This document shows, in pieces, positions 6,953-62,785 of a stretch of DNA of 64,000 bases. Origin of the DNA: a virus; the IMG/VR virus record IMGVR_UViG_3300045988_126562; one strand, given 5' to 3'. The position numbers and the translations under genes were made by a program. The first letter of the stretch is position 1; each line of letters starts with the position of its first letter. The notes beneath the pieces are model-generated. The model was given only the letters and a program-made list of their open reading frames with translations, searched no databases and had not been told where the DNA came from.

Positions 6953-7313
6953 TAGAATCAGTTATGTCTTTTATGCAACCACAAGAGTTACATCTCACTT
7001 CAATTATATTCCCTAATCCAGTAGGGGTTATAATGTATGAGAAATTGCCTCCTGTAGTTGAAAAAAATTCTTTACCTAAATAGTCGCGACAACAATTCCT
7101 ATGTTCTTCCAAAAACTCATTTATTCCTATGGTTTCATTTGCATTTACTCTAAATCTAAGAGTATTGTCTATTTGCGATCTTTTGGTTTTCAATTCAGTA
7201 AGATAACTAAGAAGTTCCTCATGGTCTAATTTACAAGATTCATTGGCGCATGAATTTATAACTTCTTCACAATGACTTATTGCTTCTTCTAAGCTCATAG
7301 TTCTTCTAACCAC
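6942..7313 (-). CDS. Hypothetical Cys-rich protein
   Basis: 123-aa ORF with CNSCGC and other Cys pairs. Confidence 0.4.
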   Translation of the reverse strand: MVRRTMSLEEAISHCEEVINSCANESCKLDHEELLSYLTELKTKRSQIDNTLRFRVNANETIGINEFLEEHRNCCRDYLGKEFFSTTGGNFSYIITPTGLGNIIEVRCNSCGCIKDITDSSDW

Positions 7314-15554: not shown

Positions 15555-15849
15555 ATATACTTATAATTTCTACTATCTCATTATTAACGAACCATTCTAA
15601 CTGTTTATACAAAGATTCCAATTCTGCCTCAGACAAATCAGGATTGGACATATCAGATAAAAGATCTTTTAGGGAAAAGTCCTTTTCCTCTTCTGAAACA
15701 AATAATCTTCCTAATTCGCTGCTTAATAAAATATCAGCTCTAATAAGCAAAGGGACACTTTCATCATGAATAGTGTCCCTTACAATACCTTCTACATTTC
15801 TTTTTATTCTTTTATAATCAGAGATTATTTCGTGTATGTTTTCTATCAT
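15547..15849 (-). CDS. Hypothetical protein
   Basis: 100-aa ORF in a co-oriented array. Confidence 0.4.
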   Translation of the reverse strand: MIENIHEIISDYKRIKRNVEGIVRDTIHDESVPLLIRADILLSSELGRLFVSEEEKDFSLKDLLSDMSNPDLSEAELESLYKQLEWFVNNEIVEIISIYE

Positions 15850-17210
15850 TATTGTTCAGCCTCAATATCAAATTCCCCTTTGTCCAAAGCTGCTCTCTCC
15901 TTTTCCAAGAATGCAAAACATTTTAGTTTATATACATCAATGTTAAGAGATTCATTTCTAATTACTATGCCTTCATGTGGCACTTTGTTAATGCAACGAG
16001 GACTATACATTTCCATATTAAATCTCTTATCTTTAGATAGACATTCAACGAAGTTATCATTCCAATGGTTTGTTACGTCTAAGTCAGGATATAGATTTTT
16101 TGCATACCCATAATAATATTGTTCTACAGGAGTCCATCCCATTTTTTCACATAATTGTTGAACTTGTCTAGCGCTAAACTCATATACAGCACCGTCAAGA
16201 TTGGTATAAGTAATACGATATACTTCTACTCCATAGTTTTTTCCATATTTCCATTTACTTGGAGATTCTGGTTTTTCAAATCCATAATCCCACTTTCCTT
16301 GAATAGGAGCACCATTAGGCCAATATCCTAGTATCTCGTAATATACAGTCATACCTTTTGGAAGACTACCAAATAAGAGATTATGAATCTCATTTCTTCC
16401 CATAACATCTGCTCCTCCATAATACCCAGATACTCTTTCATTTAGAATTGGATCTTGAATCACTTTTCTAGAACTGCAGAAACTATGGTATTCCTCTATA
16501 TATTTCTGCCTTCTCATTATTTTATCGAAGAATGATTTAGGAAGTTGCTTTTTAATCATTACATTTGCAGAGATTCCGGAGGTTCCATGTACTTTTGCAG
16601 TAATAGAAATCAATGAATCAGGTTTGATTACATAAGGACATTTCTTTAGGAGGGTGGTATCTACGTGATAATGGAACTGTCCTTCTAAAACTTCTGCATC
16701 TGCTTTCTTTTTAGGTTGTTTTCCTTGTTTAGATCCTGAAGTTCCAGGTGTCCTTTGATATTTCGGAACATACTTTTTACATAGCAATTTTCCATCTATA
16801 GTATCAAAATCTACTCCTACTTCAGAGTCATCAATTACAACAGGACTGTCTATAAAACAATTAAAGGATTCTATAGGAATAATAAATCCTTCGCTAATTT
16901 CTCCCTTTAATTTAATAGCCTTTACTCTTCCCTTGTCTTCAAACATCCCGGTTTTGGAATGATCAACATTCATGGAAGCATCTCTAAACAAATTATTTTT
17001 ACCTAAAAATTCTTTGTCTATACAGCACTCTACCGGAAAATAAATATAAAATCCTGGCTTTGAATCTATTCCGGTAATAACATTAAATCCATCTACCTTG
17101 CAGCATTTTAATTTAGTTACTTCTGGATTAGAATGAGAGTGAAATTCTTGGATATTCACGATTTTTGCTGCATAATTAGCATTGAAATTTTTACTTCTTG
17201 ATAAATTCAT
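15849..17210 (-). CDS. RNA ligase, Rnl2-like nucleotidyltransferase
   Basis: Motif I AKVHGTSG (KxHG, as in T4 Rnl2 KIHGTN), motif III-like YYEILGY, motif IV HEGIVIRN and motif V YKLKC. An N-terminal ~190-aa extension is unassigned. Confidence 0.65.
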   Translation of the reverse strand: MNLSRSKNFNANYAAKIVNIQEFHSHSNPEVTKLKCCKVDGFNVITGIDSKPGFYIYFPVECCIDKEFLGKNNLFRDASMNVDHSKTGMFEDKGRVKAIKLKGEISEGFIIPIESFNCFIDSPVVIDDSEVGVDFDTIDGKLLCKKYVPKYQRTPGTSGSKQGKQPKKKADAEVLEGQFHYHVDTTLLKKCPYVIKPDSLISITAKVHGTSGISANVMIKKQLPKSFFDKIMRRQKYIEEYHSFCSSRKVIQDPILNERVSGYYGGADVMGRNEIHNLLFGSLPKGMTVYYEILGYWPNGAPIQGKWDYGFEKPESPSKWKYGKNYGVEVYRITYTNLDGAVYEFSARQVQQLCEKMGWTPVEQYYYGYAKNLYPDLDVTNHWNDNFVECLSKDKRFNMEMYSPRCINKVPHEGIVIRNESLNIDVYKLKCFAFLEKERAALDKGEFDIEAEQ

Positions 17211-48751: not shown

Positions 48752-48782
48752 AATTAATCTAAAATATTAAACAGTTAATAAG

Positions 48783-48868
48783 CTCGGACGGTAGGATTCG
48801 AACCTACGTGAGAGTTTCCTCTCGGCAGTTTTGGAGACTGCTGGCATTAACCACTCGCCCACGGCCGA
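48783..48868 (-). tRNA. Type-II (long variable arm) tRNA with anticodon CCA
   Basis: Hand fold: Ser-type D arm GGC-GAGUGGUUAAU-GCC, anticodon stem GCAGU/ACUGC, loop CUCCAAA, 17-nt variable arm, T arm GUAGG-UUCGAAU-CCUAC and discriminator G. One C-U mismatch in the acceptor stem. Confidence 0.6.
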
Positions 48869-54263: not shown

Positions 54264-54734
54264 TCAATAATGTGATGCGTTCTTACCAGAAAAAGTATCG
54301 GTTTGGGAATGACAATTAGGACATAGTAATCTAAGGTTTTCTATTCTATTATCCTTATTATTTCCATTAATATGGTCTAATTGTAATGATAGAGGCTTTT
54401 CTTGCCACTCATTAATACCACATATACTACACTTGTATTCTAGTAAATTAGATTCCAATAGCCTCTTCTTTAGAGAAGTGTTATTGGTGTAAGTAGAATC
54501 TTCTACTAGAATATCTTCTAAGGACTTATACCTTTCAGGTGAGTGATTTTTAGCATATCTATTAAAGTGGGATGTATCTATATCTAGCTCTCCTATCTTA
54601 TCTTTAATTAGTTTAGTAACTCCGCCTCCCTTTGACCTATAACCAAGCTTAAAAGCTATTTCGGAAACTGTCTCAGATTCTTTAACTATATTACTAAACT
54701 CTTCATCACTAAATTTACTTATTAAAGTTCCCAT
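54264..54734 (-). CDS. HNH homing endonuclease (paralogue of 60624..61130)
   Basis: Contains CSICG...HINGNNKDNRIENLRLLCPNCH. Start moved to MGTLISKF, because the track N-terminus is a read-through of tRNA-Phe. The stop TGA abuts the 3' tRNA half. Confidence 0.75.
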   Translation of the reverse strand: MGTLISKFSDEEFSNIVKESETVSEIAFKLGYRSKGGGVTKLIKDKIGELDIDTSHFNRYAKNHSPERYKSLEDILVEDSTYTNNTSLKKRLLESNLLEYKCSICGINEWQEKPLSLQLDHINGNNKDNRIENLRLLCPNCHSQTDTFSGKNASHY

Positions 54735-54739
54735 ATAGG

Positions 54740-54811
54740 TGGGACAGGAGGGAATTGAACCCCCAACGCCAGGTTCTTCAAACCTGCGCTCTACCATTGA
54801 GCTACTGTCCC
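54740..54811 (-). tRNA. tRNA-Phe (GAA), nested inside the split tRNA
   Basis: Cloverleaf GGGACAG/CUGUCCC, D arm GCUC-AAUGGUA-GAGC, anticodon loop UUGAAGA, T loop UUCAAUU. Confidence 0.85.
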
Positions 54812-55552: not shown

Positions 55553-55577
55553 ATCTTATATATTTTACTAAATTTTG

Positions 55578-55648
55578 TGATTCCAGTCGGACTCGAACCG
55601 ACGTATTTGGTTTTAGGGACCAACGGATAGCCACTCTCCCATGAAATC
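55578..55648 (-). tRNA. Predicted amber-suppressor tRNA (anticodon CUA)
   Basis: Cloverleaf GAUUUCA/UGGAAUC, D arm GGA-GAGUGGCUA-UCC, anticodon stem UUGGU/ACCAA, loop CCCUAAA (anticodon at 55614-55616), T arm GUCGG-UUCGAGU-CCGAC. Position 33 is an unusual C. Confidence 0.6.
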
Positions 55649-56496: not shown

Positions 56497-56541
56497 AAAT
56501 TTTTAATTGTTTAACATCTGGAAACTAAAAGTTTTAATTTG

Positions 56542-56626
56542 TGTACCCTCTGGGACTCGAACCCAGCGTGGGATTACTCCCTCCGGATTAAAAGTCCGGT
56601 GCAGTAGCCAGCTCTGCTCAGGGTAC
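56542..56626 (-). tRNA. tRNA-Lys (UUU) with a 16-nt long variable arm
   Basis: Cloverleaf GUACCCU/AGGGUAC, D arm GCAG-AGCUGGCUA-CUGC, anticodon stem CCGGA/UCCGG, loop CUUUUAA, variable arm AGGGAGUAAUCCCACG (GGGA/UCCC stem), T arm CUGGG-UUCGAGU-CCCAG, discriminator A. Confidence 0.7.
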
Positions 56627-56811: not shown

Positions 56812-57237
56812 TTATAAGTCGCCTTTCTTTATTTTTTTATACAAAGAATAAGGAATTTCATTAAAATTTTCCTTCCCTTCTTCTCTTAATGCTATCATTT
56901 TTACTCCATTTCTGTAGAATACAGTAGGATCAGATTCCAATACATAGTTATCTTTTATATGATTCTCATTGCAATATTCATGGGAATTAAGAAACGGCAA
57001 AACAAGCTTAACCATCTCTCTTATAGGAATAGTAACTTCCTGCATCATAGGAATCCAGTTTGCACAGGTATTTACTGTATGAAGTGGAACGTTACTACCA
57101 GATATAGTTTGCATTCCAGAATTACCCATAAATCGTACATAATCATGGGCTACTATAATTCTTTTTTCTCTAGAAAAATCTAGATCTTCTAATTCTACTT
57201 CAAATTTTCTTTCACTAATCTGTTTTGTTATCTTCAT
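56812..57237 (-). CDS. Hypothetical protein
   Basis: 141-aa ORF. A GCGAC/GUCGC hairpin spans its stop codon. Confidence 0.4.
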   Translation of the reverse strand: MKITKQISERKFEVELEDLDFSREKRIIVAHDYVRFMGNSGMQTISGSNVPLHTVNTCANWIPMMQEVTIPIREMVKLVLPFLNSHEYCNENHIKDNYVLESDPTVFYRNGVKMIALREEGKENFNEIPYSLYKKIKKGDL

Positions 57238-57253
57238 ATCTTAAAATTTAATG

Positions 57254-57594
57254 TGGACGATGAGGGATTCGAACCCTCGTCCTAACTACTTCTCAATAAC
57301 ATAGTATATGCGAAATTACCTTTTTATAGAAGGCTAACTAGGGGAAGCCGATTGGCATCCACTCCACCACTCCATTATAAGTTGGAGAACTATAGAAACC
57401 AATGGTCATTTCTGTTCCTAAGCTGACTTACACTCGACTCTCTTTGCAATTAAGCAGCGATACGAACTTCGTCGATTTCGCGAGAGAAAGAAATTGCATT
57501 ATTCTTTCCATTTAATTGTTTGTACTTATAAGGTAGTCACAACCTTTTCACCTATGTTACCGTTCGTCATAGCAGTCAAAAGCCTGTATCGCCC
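57254..57594 (-). ncRNA. ssrA: tmRNA (SsrA-like)
   Basis: 5' GGGCGAU pairs with 3' AUCGUCC-A, giving a G3-U70 pair and A73 (Ala identity). The 5' GGCUUUUGAC resembles the tmRNA D-loop analogue, and the 3' T arm is GAGGG-UUCGAAU-CCCUC. An internal frame GCA AUU ... AUC GCU GCU UAA (57450-57497) ends in ..IAA-stop. Length ~341 nt. Confidence 0.7.
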
Positions 57595-57897
57595 TTATTT
57601 GCTATAGAATAAAATTTCTCCGTCAATGGTCTTTACTTCCCAACCACTACTTCTATAGAAATTTTCAACATTTCCTTCTTTATTATCCTGGAATGCTTTT
57701 CTTCTTTTATCCTTCTCGTCTCCACTATATTTAGTAAGTACTGCATCCATTATCTCTTCGGTACTTATACTAATAGGAGCTGAATCAGAAAATCTTTTTA
57801 CTAGAAGATCGTTTACTATTGCTATTACTTCATCATTTGCTAATTTAGCACGCAACTCTCTAGCTTTTCCAGGAGTTATAGGATCAACCTTAGCCAT
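57595..57897 (-). CDS. Hypothetical protein
   Basis: 100-aa ORF whose stop codon directly abuts the tmRNA 5' end. Confidence 0.4.
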   Translation of the reverse strand: MAKVDPITPGKARELRAKLANDEVIAIVNDLLVKRFSDSAPISISTEEIMDAVLTKYSGDEKDKRRKAFQDNKEGNVENFYRSSGWEVKTIDGEILFYSK

Positions 57898-60391: not shown

Positions 60392-61228
60392 CAAGCTATG
60401 AGTCTTAGCTTCGACTATGTCTTAACCATATCTTTCGACTTAGGTTGCTGGTATATAGTCTGTACACATTTATAAATTGGGTTGGGCGTCAGGTGTCCCT
60501 CCGTTGTTTTCAGCCTATGTTTTCAAGGCATCCTTCTTTTAAAACATACGAACAAAAACGAATGTTCCCAATTTAACTTAGCTCGGCGTTATTTACATTT
60601 ATAAGGCTGTAACCTTCACCGAATTAGCCAGCTTCTACTTCAAGAGTTTCCTCTTGAGCACTCAATACCTTTCCTGAATAATTGTCTGTTTGTGCATGAC
60701 AATTTGGACAAAGAACTTGTAGATTTTCTAAACGATTATCTGTATGAATTCCGTTTAAATGGTGTAATTCAAGTGAAATAGGATGTCCTAACCACTCAGT
60801 TAAACCGCAGCATTCACATTTATGTTCTTTTATTCCTTCAGACAGAAGACGATTACGGATATTATGAGAAGTCCATCCTGAATTTTCAATTAAAATTTCA
60901 GAAATGTCTTTCTTTTTGATTGACGGATGTTCTCCACTTTTTAATCCTTTATTCCATCGTGCTCCTGTAAAATGACTCATATCTAAATTTAATTGTTGTA
61001 TCTTCTTTTTTACTGTATTAAGATTACCTCCTTTTGGAGATATTCCGATAATTCTACACACTTCGGCGTAAGAATGTCCTTCTTTTACAGCATTAATAAA
61101 TTGTTCTTCTGTATATTTTTTACTTGCCATGGTATATTATTTTAATACACTATTATACTAATAAAAATTGTATACACAAAAAATAATTTTAACTTAATAC
61201 TTCCAATTAATTTAGATGTAATTTTTTT
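60392..61228 (-). mobile_element. Group I intron carrying an HNH homing endonuclease ORF
   Basis: An R-like element CAGACUAUAUACC (60450-60466) and an S-like element AAGACAUAGUCG (60412-60423). A terminal hairpin AAGCUA..UAGCUU is followed by G at the 3' junction. Insertion position is 34/35, as in the classic tRNA-Leu intron. Confidence 0.65.
60624..61130 (-). CDS. HNH homing endonuclease (intron-encoded)
   Basis: Contains CECCG...HHLNGIHTDNRLENLQVLCPNCH. Alignable along its length with 54264..54734. Confidence 0.8.
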   Translation of the reverse strand: MASKKYTEEQFINAVKEGHSYAEVCRIIGISPKGGNLNTVKKKIQQLNLDMSHFTGARWNKGLKSGEHPSIKKKDISEILIENSGWTSHNIRNRLLSEGIKEHKCECCGLTEWLGHPISLELHHLNGIHTDNRLENLQVLCPNCHAQTDNYSGKVLSAQEETLEVEAG

Positions 61229-61708: not shown

Positions 61709-62785
61709 TTACATTATTTCTTTATCACAGTTAAACATAGACAATTCTATTCCTCTGAACTTAGAATATATTGGTTGAAGATCAGAAAAGCTACATTCTT
61801 TTAGATTGTTAATATAAGTTAGTTGGTCTTTGAGATCCCAACAAGTAAAACATATTTTGGAGGAAACGTTTATACCTTCTTTTTCCGTTATAATTCTGTT
61901 ACAATTAATGGAATGGTTAAGAAGATCTAAATCTAATTTAGCGTATTTTAAAGATCCTTGAAACTTATTATATACATTAATTTCTTCAGGATTAACAATG
62001 TTCTCTAGTGGTTCTGATAATATAGGCCCATTTCCATGTCTAGTTATATATATTCTAGATACATAATTTACTATTATATCTTTCACACCAATAGACTTTA
62101 TAATTTTATAAGCATTTTCTCCAGTTGTATTAGAAGGAGTAGTGTGTGGATAGAATCCAAATTTTTGATCTAGTAGTATTCCTTGAGATCCTTCAAATAT
62201 AATATTAGAAAAGCTAGGTTTTAAGAATCCTATTTTATTTCTTTTGAACCAGTTAATATAAGATTCTGCTAATTCTTCTATATTAACACAGGTTTCATTA
62301 TAATACTCTAATATAGAATTTAGCTTGGAGAGCAACACTTTTTTATTTTGACATTCTTCCACTGTAAGGGAGCAGCATTCCATAACTCTTTTAATAGCCG
62401 GCCAATATCCGGTTCCTACGGTTCCATGTTTTAAATTATCCTTATCTTTTCTTTGAAAAGATATATCCATAGGAGTAATTACTTGACATAAGGGATTATA
62501 TATTACCTTTGGAGTTACATTGAACTTTTCTAATAAAATTTTACTTTCAACTATAGCAGACAAGGGGTTTACAAAACAATACTCTGACCAATAAGTAGGA
62601 CATCCTTTAAAAGTTCCACTTCCAAAATTACTGAAAACGTGTTTTTTGTTTCCAGAAATAACTGTATGACCACTTTGTGATCCGCCACTAAATCTTACTA
62701 TAATGGAGTTTGAGTCAGATAGGTTATGCACTATCTGACCCTTGCCCTCGTCTCCAAAAAAGGCTCCTAAAACTATATGTATCAT
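61709..62785 (-). CDS. Short-form adenylosuccinate synthetase homologue (PurA family; PurZ candidate)
   Basis: N-terminal GDEGKGQIV P-loop, GGSQSGHT (compare GGHNAGHT in PurA) and GTVGTG (compare GTTGRG). 358 aa, roughly 70 aa shorter than bacterial PurA. Confidence 0.7.
   Translation of the reverse strand: MIHIVLGAFFGDEGKGQIVHNLSDSNSIIVRFSGGSQSGHTVISGNKKHVFSNFGSGTFKGCPTYWSEYCFVNPLSAIVESKILLEKFNVTPKVIYNPLCQVITPMDISFQRKDKDNLKHGTVGTGYWPAIKRVMECCSLTVEECQNKKVLLSKLNSILEYYNETCVNIEELAESYINWFKRNKIGFLKPSFSNIIFEGSQGILLDQKFGFYPHTTPSNTTGENAYKIIKSIGVKDIIVNYVSRIYITRHGNGPILSEPLENIVNPEEINVYNKFQGSLKYAKLDLDLLNHSINCNRIITEKEGINVSSKICFTCWDLKDQLTYINNLKECSFSDLQPIYSKFRGIELSMFNCDKEIM

Follow-up and report, generated by a model that had tools for sequence, protein, structure and literature searches.

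A large crAss-like phage of the human gut carries a tmRNA gene (ssrA) within its tRNA island. Based on the sequence comparisons described here, we assign a probability of roughly three in four to the reading that this gene encodes a functional one-piece tmRNA, and that the phage, a phage of gut Bacteroidales and most likely a member of the Zeta group, thereby brings its own supply of ribosome rescue. The initial annotation had placed a phage-encoded tmRNA at 57254-57594 of the window, which is the whole 64-kb stretch of DNA that we analyzed from a genome of ~176 kb. We confirm this observation, with the correction that the gene lies on the minus strand, and the conservation that we found among related phages argues that it is genuine and evolutionarily maintained.

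In our ARAGORN run, the minus strand gave a one-piece tmRNA at 57253-57594 that encodes the tag GKNNAISFSREIDEVRIAA*. The Rfam family RF00023 matched 57251-57594 on the same strand over its full model (1-374 of 374), with a score of 54.4 bits against a gathering threshold of 47 and an E-value of 1.3e-18 for the whole 64-kb window searched with all 4227 Rfam families. Both of the programs that the initial annotation had proposed as checks, which are independent of each other, call a tmRNA, and the claim is further borne out by covariation across relatives and by conservation of the tag frame. The permuted two-piece tmRNA model RF04321 reached 27.2 bits, below its threshold of 47, and the gene order is that of a standard one-piece tmRNA. 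When folded at full length, the RNA kept its acceptor stem, T arm, and P2 helix (MFE -93.9 kcal/mol, z = -2.8). The parts of the gene and its immediate neighbors are listed in Table 1.

Table 1. Coordinates of the tmRNA gene, its structural parts, and the adjoining open reading frames in the window.
Feature	Coordinates	Strand	Remarks
Upstream ORF, 100 aa	57595..57897	(-)	Stop TAA at 57595-57597 abuts tmRNA G1 (57594)
One-piece tmRNA gene	57254..57594	(-)	341 nt, from G1 (57594) to discriminator A73 (57254)
Acceptor stem 5' strand, GGGCGAU	57588..57594	(-)	Pairs with 57255-57261, AUCGUCC; bears the G3·U70 alanine identity pair
D-loop analogue, ACAGGCUUUUGAC	57575..57587	(-)	Equivalent place in Bacteroidales host tmRNAs is ACUGGAUUUGAC
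P2 connector helix 5' strand	57546..57575	(-)	tmRNA positions 20-49; partner 57282-57315; folds and Rfam alignment
PK1, H-type pseudoknot	57514..57546	(-)	Adjoins the resume codon upstream; sequence inspection and heuristic pseudoknot search
Tag frame	57450..57509	(-)	GGA resume codon 57507-57509, 19 codons GKNNAISFSREIDEVRIAA, UAA stop 57450-57452; ARAGORN
Lineage-specific conserved block, UCCAACUUAUAAUGGAGUGGUGGA	57363..57386	(-)	Includes the CUCCA/UGGAG hairpin of the downstream pseudoknot region; common to all five subtypes
P2 connector helix 3' strand	57282..57315	(-)	tmRNA positions 280-313, then conserved GGAC; folds, Rfam alignment, and covariation
T arm, GAGGG-UUCGAAU-CCCUC	57262..57278	(-)	Sequence and Rfam alignment
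Downstream ORF, 141 aa, pI 6.4	56812..57237	(-)	Starts 16 nt past the discriminator base

The acceptor stem with its G3·U70 pair and A73, the D-loop analogue, and the T arm had all been read correctly at the outset and are present in the minus-strand sequence, and the length is 341 nt as far as the discriminator base. Across the five subtypes of this tmRNA that we identified in related phages, the acceptor stem, T arm, and long P2 helix folded in every case and G3·U70 was invariant. We found double compensatory changes at 19 of 42 consensus pairs, as measured on mini-constructs (when short and long forms were aligned globally with MAFFT, the 5' part of the window's tmRNA fell out of register). 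Acceptor pairs 5-7 (GAU/AUC, UUG/CAA, CUA/UAG, and CUG/CAG) and the T stem (GAGGG/CCCUC, GGCGG/CCGCC, and ACGGG/CCCGU) covary between subtypes, with two to three pair types at each pair, and the P3 pairs covary in part (columns 48-51 with 62-65). P2 pairs likewise show compensatory changes, and their pairing is kept in natural variants, since the window has G44-C285 and U45·G284 where the relative L003 has G44·U285 and C45-G284. PK1 can be drawn in two ways in the window, one of them AAGGU/ACCUU plus UGUG/UACA and the other in a different register, and the arrangement can be drawn at the equivalent place in all phage subtypes and host tmRNAs. In the PK2-PK4 region further downstream, posterior probabilities of the Rfam alignment are low, many of the pairs are non-canonical, and PK2 aligns poorly; two elements, hairpins or pseudoknot-like, are left there, and the stretch from the tag to P2 is ~55 nt shorter than in hosts. 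PK2-PK4 of the Escherichia coli tmRNA are dispensable in vitro (PMC3985003). The gene ends in ...GUCCA followed by CAU, so the 3' CCA is not encoded and must be added post-transcriptionally, as is likewise the case for 10 of the 11 tRNA genes of the phage and 94 of 101 Bacteroidota ssrA genes.

The tag frame had originally been placed at 57450-57497, beginning with GCA. While the frame itself stands, its start does not, and both ARAGORN and Rfam put a GGA resume codon four codons upstream of GCA, with GGA falling on the resume codon of the Rfam model. The context of this codon in the window, AAUUAAAU followed by GGA AAG AAU AAU, matches that of the host, AAUUAAUU followed by GGC GAA AAU AAU. 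The frame has no start codon, is entered at the resume codon, and yields a tag that ends in IAA; a C-terminal hydrophobic-Ala-Ala is the core ClpX determinant in E. coli. The tag had also been described as unusual, which holds only in part. It is less exotic than was thought, with a GKNN start beside the GENN of the host, a hydrophobic-Ala-Ala end, and counterparts of its ending (...RIAA and ...RLAA) in other phage tmRNAs. Other phage tmRNAs have tags as long as 31 aa, and we found RIAA, RLAA, and LIAA endings among phage or bacterial-type tmRNAs. A broad 3'-end pattern, GGACGNNGGTTCGANTCCNNCNNNGTCCAC, retrieved mostly marine permuted tmRNAs and showed that a long tag or an R(I/L)AA ending is nothing rare.

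Across the lineage, the ending V/L-R-(M/I)-A-A is kept despite synonymous codon changes such as CGU to AGA. The V-R-(I/M)-A-A codons are GUU CGU AUC GCU GCU in the window and GUA AGA AUG GCA GCS in the longer forms of the gene, and synonymous differences occur at 4 of the last five or six tag codons between the two. Among contigs with the window type, the tag is identical in 6 of 6, with only structure-compatible substitutions (the loci L001-L004 are four loci from two contigs), and neither frame-disrupting tag indels nor broken acceptor or T stems were seen in the relatives. Together, the covariant stems and the synonymous turnover of tag codons indicate that the RNA is likely both folded and translated.

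We traced this tmRNA lineage to at least 23 related contigs, where it takes the form of five subtypes that measure 341-574 nt. The subtypes were found in 12 contigs from IMG/VR and 11 from gut metagenomes, as well as in 2 fragments in GenBank. The contigs of the relatives measure 105-232 kb and all come from human gut samples, and the tmRNA always lies within a tRNA island and on the tRNA strand. The sibling forms score 63-82 bits with RF00023, and the conserved block, when used as a search pattern, matched only members of this lineage. No tmRNA was found in the 12 kb examined of the relatives L005 and L008, which means that some members of the group do not carry the gene. Neither the tmRNA nor 14 kb of flanking sequence matched any GenBank phage by blastn or megablast, and the only GenBank matches of the long form were two unannotated fecal fragments. 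The long forms, of 530-574 nt, come from related large crAss-like phages (L006/L007, L129, L130-L135, and L131/L132/L136). They share with the window form the block UCCAACnUAnAAUGGAGUGGUGGA, the tRNA-like domain, P2, the PK1 layout, the (V/L)R(M/I)AA tag ending, and their place within the tRNA island. On the other hand, the window form is ~190-230 nt shorter between the tag and P2, its tag of 19 aa is the longest compared to 9-11 aa in the long forms, and this tag ends in Ile-Ala-Ala instead of Met-Ala-Ala. ARAGORN detected the window form but missed all of the long forms.

For comparison with hosts, we sampled 101 Bacteroidota ssrA genes (e.g., from Bacteroides, Prevotella/Segatella, and Parabacteroides). 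As the initial annotation had stated for this phylum, the host tags are of the NYALAA type, GENNYALAA or GETNYALAA, and GE(N/T)NYALAA was present in 97 of the 101 in a sample that was itself selected by that pattern. Like the phage gene, these genes are one-piece, start with GGGC or GGGG with G3·U70, have a D-loop analogue ...GGNUUUGAC, carry GGAC and then a GGUUCGAnUCC T arm, mostly leave CCA unencoded, and place a Gly resume codon after ...AAUUAAnU; the tags of both start with G-(E/K)-N-N and end in hydrophobic-Ala-Ala before a UAA stop. The 3' 33 nt of the phage tmRNA reach up to 94% identity to some Bacteroidota ssrA 3' ends. However, identity is ~67-70% even over the alignable ends, and the pseudoknot-rich middle cannot be aligned; both the middle and the tag of the phage gene have diverged. 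The host tag is 9 aa long and ends in YALAA, whereas that of the phage is 19 aa long, ends in VRIAA, and has a ~10-residue insertion relative to the host tag. The phage gene, at 341 nt, is shorter than any of the sampled host genes (363-425 nt), and unlike them it sits in a phage tRNA island.

The assumption of a Bacteroidota host fits the rest of the window, which belongs to a large crAss-like phage of human gut origin and encodes PolA, NrdD, ligases, and a helicase similar to Dda. Its PolA shares 48-51% identity with Crassvirales sequences from Bacteroides crAss-like phages. Zeta phages are described as 145-192 kb gut phages with ~30-37% GC, many tRNAs, and a complex replication module with RNR and PolA/PolB (PMC7886860, PMC12386605). 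The phage fits this group in genome size, GC content, tRNA count, PolA, NrdD, suppressor tRNA, and gut origin, and we consider Zeta the most likely assignment; membership is defined by TerL/MCP phylogeny, and both of these genes lie outside the window. A diaminopurine ("Z") genome, an idea raised by a PurA-like ORF, is not supported, as this ORF scored 29 bits where the PurZ cut-off is 300, and the PurA cut-offs were likewise far out of its reach.

We also examined the genes that flank the tmRNA. The 100-aa upstream ORF matched no Pfam or PHROG family. As was noted from the start, its stop codon directly adjoins the 5' end of the tmRNA, which implies that the tmRNA would be co-transcribed with this ORF and that its 5' end would be freed by RNase P. 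The 141-aa downstream ORF was considered as a divergent SmpB and rejected, as it had no Pfam or PHROG hit, no tblastn match, and a pI of 6.4 compared to 9.9 for SmpB. It is also absent from the closest relatives, L003 and L004, which are 99% identical to the window, while in L132 and L136 it lies directly downstream of the tmRNA (54-64% identity). In agreement with the earlier claim that no SmpB-like ORF is visible, our search for smpB found none in the 64-kb window, nor in the short pieces of the relatives that were searched.

Altogether, these findings suggest that the phage most likely supplies its own tmRNA and uses the SmpB, AlaRS, and CCA-adding enzyme of the host, such that ribosomes would be kept free during infection. 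The tmRNA gene would be transcribed together with the flanking ORFs and tRNAs, as it has no spacer at its 5' end and one of 16 nt at its 3' end. At G1, RNase P would then free the 5' end of the RNA; the 3' end would be trimmed and completed by the host CCA-adding enzyme. The host AlaRS would charge the RNA with alanine through the invariant G3·U70 pair, and the charged RNA would enter stalled ribosomes with host SmpB and EF-Tu, consistent with the lack of a detectable phage SmpB in the window. Translation would resume at GGA and append (A)GKNNAISFSREIDEVRIAA, after which host AAA+ proteases would recognize the rescued chain by its hydrophobic-Ala-Ala C-terminus. The spacing of the gene, the unencoded CCA, the G3·U70 pair, and the lack of a detectable SmpB in the window have sequence evidence, and the remainder of these steps is drawn from established tmRNA biology. 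A fit with host factors is suggested by the resemblance of the 5' end, the resume context, and the 3' 33 nt to Bacteroidota tmRNAs. The benefit may be a rescue capacity of the phage's own at a time when host transcription falls off, host RNAs become scarcer, and broken mRNAs build up, possibly from phage or host nucleases, tRNA depletion, or read-through by an amber-suppressor tRNA. In the literature, we found no test of this benefit for any phage tmRNA.

Besides the shortened stretch from the tag to P2 with its poor PK2 alignment and the lack of a tmRNA in the examined 12 kb of L005 and L008, what stands against this explanation is the departure of VRIAA from ALAA, which is highly conserved and serves as the ClpX/ClpA determinant (PMC3985003). 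It is conceivable, although we regard it as unlikely, that the (V/L)-R-(M/I)-A-A ending is an adaptation to differ from the near-uniform Y-A-L-A-A of the host, and that chains rescued by the phage tmRNA meet a different fate than host-tagged chains. Such a fate could be slower or no degradation, another protease or adaptor, or a phage-encoded reader. The initial annotation had likewise suggested that the phage may redirect or blunt tagging, an idea on which the sequence evidence is neutral. Maintenance of x-(V/L)-R-(M/I)-A-A through synonymous codon turnover, the uniformity of the pattern-selected host tags, and the ~10-residue insertion in the window-type tag would all fit. However, the hydrophobic-Ala-Ala C-terminus is retained, the occurrence of RIAA, RLAA, and LIAA in other tmRNAs means that the ending is not unique to this phage, and close to the gene we identified neither a protease nor an adaptor of the phage. 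If true, the tmRNA would be more than a spare copy of a host RNA: among the phages that are most abundant in the human gut, it would be a device for proteostasis tuned by the phage, and the distinct fate could be linked to the code switching by amber suppressors in large crAss-like phages.

Code switching bears on a second alternative, to which we give somewhat less credence, that the tmRNA serves mainly to clear ribosomes that have run to mRNA 3' ends after amber-suppressor read-through of UAG in host and early phage mRNAs. ARAGORN and Rfam identified an amber-suppressor tRNA (anticodon CUA) at 55577-55648, 1.6 kb downstream in the same tRNA island. Suppressor tRNAs create substrates for trans-translation (Ueda 2002, cited in PMC3985003), and those of Zeta phages are frequent (CTA/TCA), with CTA suppressors often accompanied by recoding of late genes (PMC7886860; table in PMC12386605). 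The tag stop, UAA, would be unaffected by an amber suppressor. On the other hand, L003 and L004 have the same tmRNA but lack the ~3-kb segment that bears the suppressor in the window, with no suppressor in 12.4 kb around the tmRNA, and none was found in 1-14 kb around the other subtypes. TAG terminates 8 of the 94 ORFs in the window, which counters recoding of TAG within it, and each of the 8 has a back-up stop 0-21 codons downstream, so that read-through would rarely reach the mRNA end.

Could the gene instead be a copy of host ssrA that the phage acquired, no longer functional and either decaying or carried along as a neutral passenger? Its middle cannot be aligned to host genes, it is shorter than those sampled, and its Rfam score is only modestly above threshold. 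However, the higher-scoring siblings, the compensatory covariation in stems, the tag frame that is intact with synonymous turnover across five diverged subtypes, and the identical tag with structure-compatible substitutions in the window-type contigs make this very improbable. Even less probable is that the sequence is an integration-site mimic, in which an attP with ssrA sequence integrates into and restores the host tmRNA gene. ssrA is a common integration target (PMC9004378), the 3' 33 nt closely match some host ends, and a recombination breakpoint between the window and L003 falls exactly at the tmRNA 3' end, but the gene is full-length with its own distinct tag rather than a fragment from the 3' end, the 69 window ORFs scanned yielded no integrase family, and the T-arm and acceptor constraints that two tmRNAs share would give such similarity anyway. 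Finally, we dismiss a tRNA-Ala gene interrupted by a large intron, for although the two ends jointly form an alanine-type acceptor stem and T arm, there is no anticodon stem-loop, what links the ends is the long P2 helix together with a pseudoknot and a conserved frame that closes with a stop codon, no match to group I or group II introns was obtained, and the end-to-end Rfam tmRNA match is the winning model within the tRNA clan.

A functional tmRNA in this phage would extend a known phenomenon. Phage tmRNAs occur in ~2.3% of sequenced phages, including mycobacteriophage cluster C, huge phages, and the pelagiphage- or Melnitz-type with two-piece forms, and they are thought to sustain translation, a function that is presumed rather than shown (PMC9004378, PMC7162821). 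Like these, the gene described here is a complete tmRNA whose phage is large, rich in tRNAs, and apparently lytic. It is similar to the tmRNA found in the phylum of the host and follows the usual pattern in which SmpB is not co-encoded. It differs in belonging to a crAss-like phage, in being one-piece and not permuted, and in having no riboswitch. Our literature search for tmRNA in crAss-like phages or Crassvirales returned tool and method mentions only and no report, and tmRNA goes unmentioned in the crAss-like genome surveys that it found; the methods of Yutin et al. describe a search for tRNAs by tRNAscan-SE only. Phage tmRNAs are already known, and the addition is their occurrence in crAss-like phages with a tag ending of their own. 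Existing knowledge of tmRNA itself is unchanged by this finding. For the large crAss-like clade as a whole, the tmRNA would add ribosome rescue to a toolkit of tRNA arrays, suppressor tRNAs, and RNA ligase, in the form of variants of 341-574 nt with a lineage-specific tag. Most of these variants are missed by ARAGORN, which most pipelines use for tmRNA, and the long forms thus fall into a blind spot of annotation.

The Rfam tmRNA model RF00023 aligned to 57251-57594 (-) over model positions 1-374 at 54.4 bits (gathering score 47; E = 1.3e-18 when the whole window is searched against 4227 families), and together with an ARAGORN call this confirms the tmRNA proposed in the initial annotation, whose strand we correct to minus. 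When the minus strand is read, the acceptor stem with its alanine identity pair G3·U70, A73, the D-loop analogue, the T arm and the length of 341 nt to the discriminator base are all present as described. The gene sequence reads ...GUCCA followed by CAU and holds no 3' CCA, and ORFs flank it at 0 nt on the 5' side, where the reported abutting stop codon was borne out, and at 16 nt on the 3' side. The tag frame is intact and UAA-terminated; its start, on the other hand, had been misplaced by four codons at a downstream in-frame GCA, since ARAGORN, the Rfam alignment and homology with host genes agree on GGA as the resume codon. Its context is AAUUAAAU followed by GGA AAG AAU AAU in the window and AAUUAAUU followed by GGC GAA AAU AAU in Prevotella/Segatella.

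Loci from related contigs (L-numbers, in their own coordinates) include four near-identical copies, L001-L004, which came from searches with an exact 3'-end pattern and with a neighbouring protein and show 4 substitutions and an identical tag. Distant relatives have tmRNAs of 530-574 nt that score 63-82 bits in Rfam and were missed by ARAGORN, so that the practical lesson is that long-form tmRNAs escape this program. All tmRNAs of the lineage share a 24-nt block, UCCAACnUAnAAUGGAGUGGUGGA, which as a search pattern retrieved this lineage only (9 IMG/VR loci and 11 gut metagenome contigs), and five subtypes were found. The long forms exceed host tmRNAs by ~130-180 nt, with the extra sequence, to which no intron family matched, lying between the tag and P2, the connector helix. 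At every locus of the lineage the tmRNA sits inside a tRNA island on the tRNA strand, and contigs with the same or a sibling tmRNA (105-232 kb) come from human gut samples.

Coordinates of the tmRNA genes and of features discussed in the text
Feature	Source	Position (strand)	Details
tmRNA, window / L003 subtype	window	57253-57594 (-)	ARAGORN; 341 nt; tag GKNNAISFSREIDEVRIAA, then stop
Acceptor stem	window	(-)	GGGCGAU/AUCGUCC, G3·U70, discriminator A
D-loop analogue	window	(-)	ACAGGCUUUUGAC
T arm	window	57262-57278 (-)	GAGGG-UUCGAAU-CCCUC
Resume codon	window	57509-57507 (-)	GGA
Upstream ORF	window	57595-57897	TAA stop touches tmRNA G1
Downstream ORF	window	56812-57237	141 aa
tmRNA, L006 / L007 subtype	L006; L007	888-1420; 872-1404	530 nt; tag GNTEVRMAA
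tmRNA, L129 subtype	L129	3001-3564	561 nt; tag AEIAPVRMAA
tmRNA, L130-L135 subtype	L130; L134	10723-11299; 7279-7855 (-)	574 nt; tag ATYSEVRMAA
tmRNA, L131 / L132 / L136 subtype	L132; L136	829-1362 (-); 212-745	about 531 nt; tag GETEGYLRMAA
tmRNA, unrelated viral contig	L105	133-458 (-)	324-326 nt; 78 bits; tag GKQINFRPSFSPMRFAA
Amber suppressor tRNA	window	55577-55648 (-)	anticodon CUA; 'Pyl' in ARAGORN; Rfam tRNA 56.5 bits
tRNA-Trp	window	48782-48868 (-)	87 nt
tRNA-Lys(UUU)	window	56541-56626 (-)	86 nt
tRNA-Tyr(AUA)	L130; L134; L135	6753-6834; 12478-12559 (-); about 4970 (-)	ARAGORN
HNH/NUMOD homing endonucleases	window	54264-54797 (-); 60624-61130 (-)	
RNA ligase	window	15849-17210 (-)	PHROG 968, E = 3e-41
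Adenylosuccinate-synthetase-like ORF	window	61709-62785 (-)	358 aa; Pfam Adenylsucc_synt, E = 8e-39
Pistol ribozyme match	L132	3518-3589 (-)	65.4 bits (threshold 34.5); ~2 kb from tmRNA

Phage tmRNAs as such are already known, occurring in 402 of 18,146 phage genomes (2.3%; PMC9004378) and also in huge phages (PMC7162821). Since our literature search found no description of a tmRNA in crAss-like phages or Crassvirales, the lineage reported here, in crAss-like phages, is newly recognised. Key crAss-like genome surveys do not mention tmRNA, and for tRNA detection Yutin et al. relied on tRNAscan-SE alone.

The match of the window to its 99%-identical relatives stops exactly at the tmRNA 3' end (window 57238-57254; L003 about 7045-7058), and the downstream ORF of the window, missing in these closest relatives, is found instead 3' of diverged tmRNAs in L132 and L136, which suggests recombination at or beside the tmRNA gene. 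The T loop of the L131/L132/L136 subtype reads GGUUUGAUUCC (C56 to U) in several independent contigs, and that of one window-type metagenome copy (L264) reads GGUUCAAAUCC, with the tmRNAs otherwise intact.

For comparison with host tmRNAs, bacterial genomes were scanned with a back-translated GE(T/N)NYALAA pattern, which matched almost only in Bacteroidota (including Bacteroides, Parabacteroides, Segatella/Prevotella, Odoribacter and Muribaculaceae), and ARAGORN extracted 101 tmRNAs of 363-425 nt from the matched loci. The NYALAA-type host tag named in the initial annotation is real, with GENNYALAA in 89/101 and GETNYALAA in 6/101 of a sample selected by that very pattern. Phage and host tmRNAs alike have the GGGC start, the ...GGAUUUGACAG motif and the resume-codon context; identity reaches 94% in the 3' 33 nt and ~67-70% across ~100 nt at either end, whereas the middle is not alignable. 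An encoded CCA is missing from 94 of the 101 host genes, and also from 10 of the 11 tRNA genes of the window phage. The window tag, G-K-N-N...I-A-A, looks like the host G-E-N-N-Y-A-L-A-A with an insertion. The simplest reading of these comparisons would be that the phage lineage captured the gene from a Bacteroidota host long ago and that it has since evolved there independently. It is possible that the tag gives rescued chains a fate different from that of host-tagged chains, as its non-host ending is conserved in the lineage, but the hydrophobic-Ala-Ala end is kept and similar endings are known in other tmRNAs.

A tie between the tmRNA and the amber suppressor tRNA is mechanistically plausible, with a precedent in Ueda 2002 as cited in PMC3985003. 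Two observations weaken this link, however: near-identical relatives carry the tmRNA but lack the 3-kb segment that bears the suppressor, and TAG stops in the window have close back-up stops. The ~3-kb segment, absent from L003 and L004, also holds tRNA-Lys(UUU), tRNA-Phe and an HNH endonuclease, and TAG terminates 8 of the 94 window ORFs.

Every subtype folds with the acceptor stem, T arm, long P2 and the hairpin of PK1, the pseudoknot upstream of the resume codon. When the tRNA-like domain, P2 and PK1 are aligned, 19 of 42 consensus pairs have pairing-preserving changes on both sides and G3·U70 is invariant, while window-type variants at P2 positions switch between G-C and G·U with pairing kept. 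V-R-(I/M)-A-A is encoded as GUU CGU AUC GCU GCU in the window versus GUA AGA AUG GCA GCS in the long forms, differences that are nearly all synonymous, including CGU to AGA for Arg. Together, covariation and synonymous changes indicate that selection acts on RNA structure and encoded peptide alike. This is strong evidence against a relic, a reading contradicted by the covarying stems and conserved tag frame. An attP mimic is contradicted by the full-length gene and by our finding no integrase family among the 69 window ORFs scanned, and a tRNA-Ala gene split by an intron, raised in the initial annotation, by the lack of an anticodon arm and by a match along the whole tmRNA model.

The absence of an ORF resembling SmpB, the tmRNA partner protein, held for the window: Pfam SmpB matched none of 59 SmpB-sized and 10 neighbouring ORFs, and tblastn with E. 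coli SmpB (query validated as SmpB at 194 bits) found none at E <= 1 in the window or 18 related loci. The ORF directly downstream of the tmRNA was rejected as SmpB (pI 6.4, no family match).

Every gene of the window is on the minus strand, GC is 31-35%, and the large ORFs belong to phage replication and nucleotide metabolism (PolA, NrdD, a Dda-like helicase, exonuclease, RNA ligase and DNA ligase), and the second gene upstream of the tmRNA encodes RNase H. The PolA protein shares 48-51% identity with that of Bacteroides crAss-like phages (cr108_1 of the Steigviridae, PhiCrAssBcn and Kehishuvirus), and ARAGORN found 11 tRNA genes between 48.7 and 61.7 kb, one with anticodon CUA. The phage fits the traits of the 'Zeta' crAss-like group (145-192 kb, 30-37% GC, 17-34 tRNAs, frequent CTA suppressors, Bacteroidales hosts; PMC7886860; table in PMC12386605), an assignment made from genome traits, with TerL and MCP outside the window.

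The tmRNA sequence has the alanine identity elements, a host-like tRNA-like domain and PK1. Following established tmRNA biology (PMC3985003), we propose as the most likely route that RNase P and 3' processing would free it from a polycistronic transcript, a host enzyme would add CCA and host AlaRS would charge it with alanine. Host SmpB and EF-Tu would then bring it to ribosomes stalled on broken mRNAs, translation would move onto the tag frame, and the (A)GKNN...VRIAA tail would direct the product to host proteases. The phage may benefit by keeping ribosomes available while the host ceases to make RNA and damaged mRNAs build up; the same rationale of sustained translation has been given for other phage tmRNAs (PMC9004378, PMC7162821), and a parallel idea, that phage tRNA islands replace host tRNAs, has been put forward (PMC10264068).

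Within the tRNA island of the window, homing-endonuclease genes are scattered, and tRNA-Trp and tRNA-Lys(UUU) have long hairpin-forming, class II-like variable arms that are unusual for these isoacceptors; the tRNA islands of 574-nt-subtype phages hold a tRNA-Tyr whose anticodon, AUA, is unusual. The RNA ligase in the replication module could repair tRNAs. The adenylosuccinate-synthetase-like ORF is divergent, scoring ~120 bits against a PurA cut-off of ~400 and 29 against a PurZ cut-off of 300 (NCBIfam). The compact tmRNA of L105 (31% GC) encodes another long tag that starts G-K and ends ...FAA.
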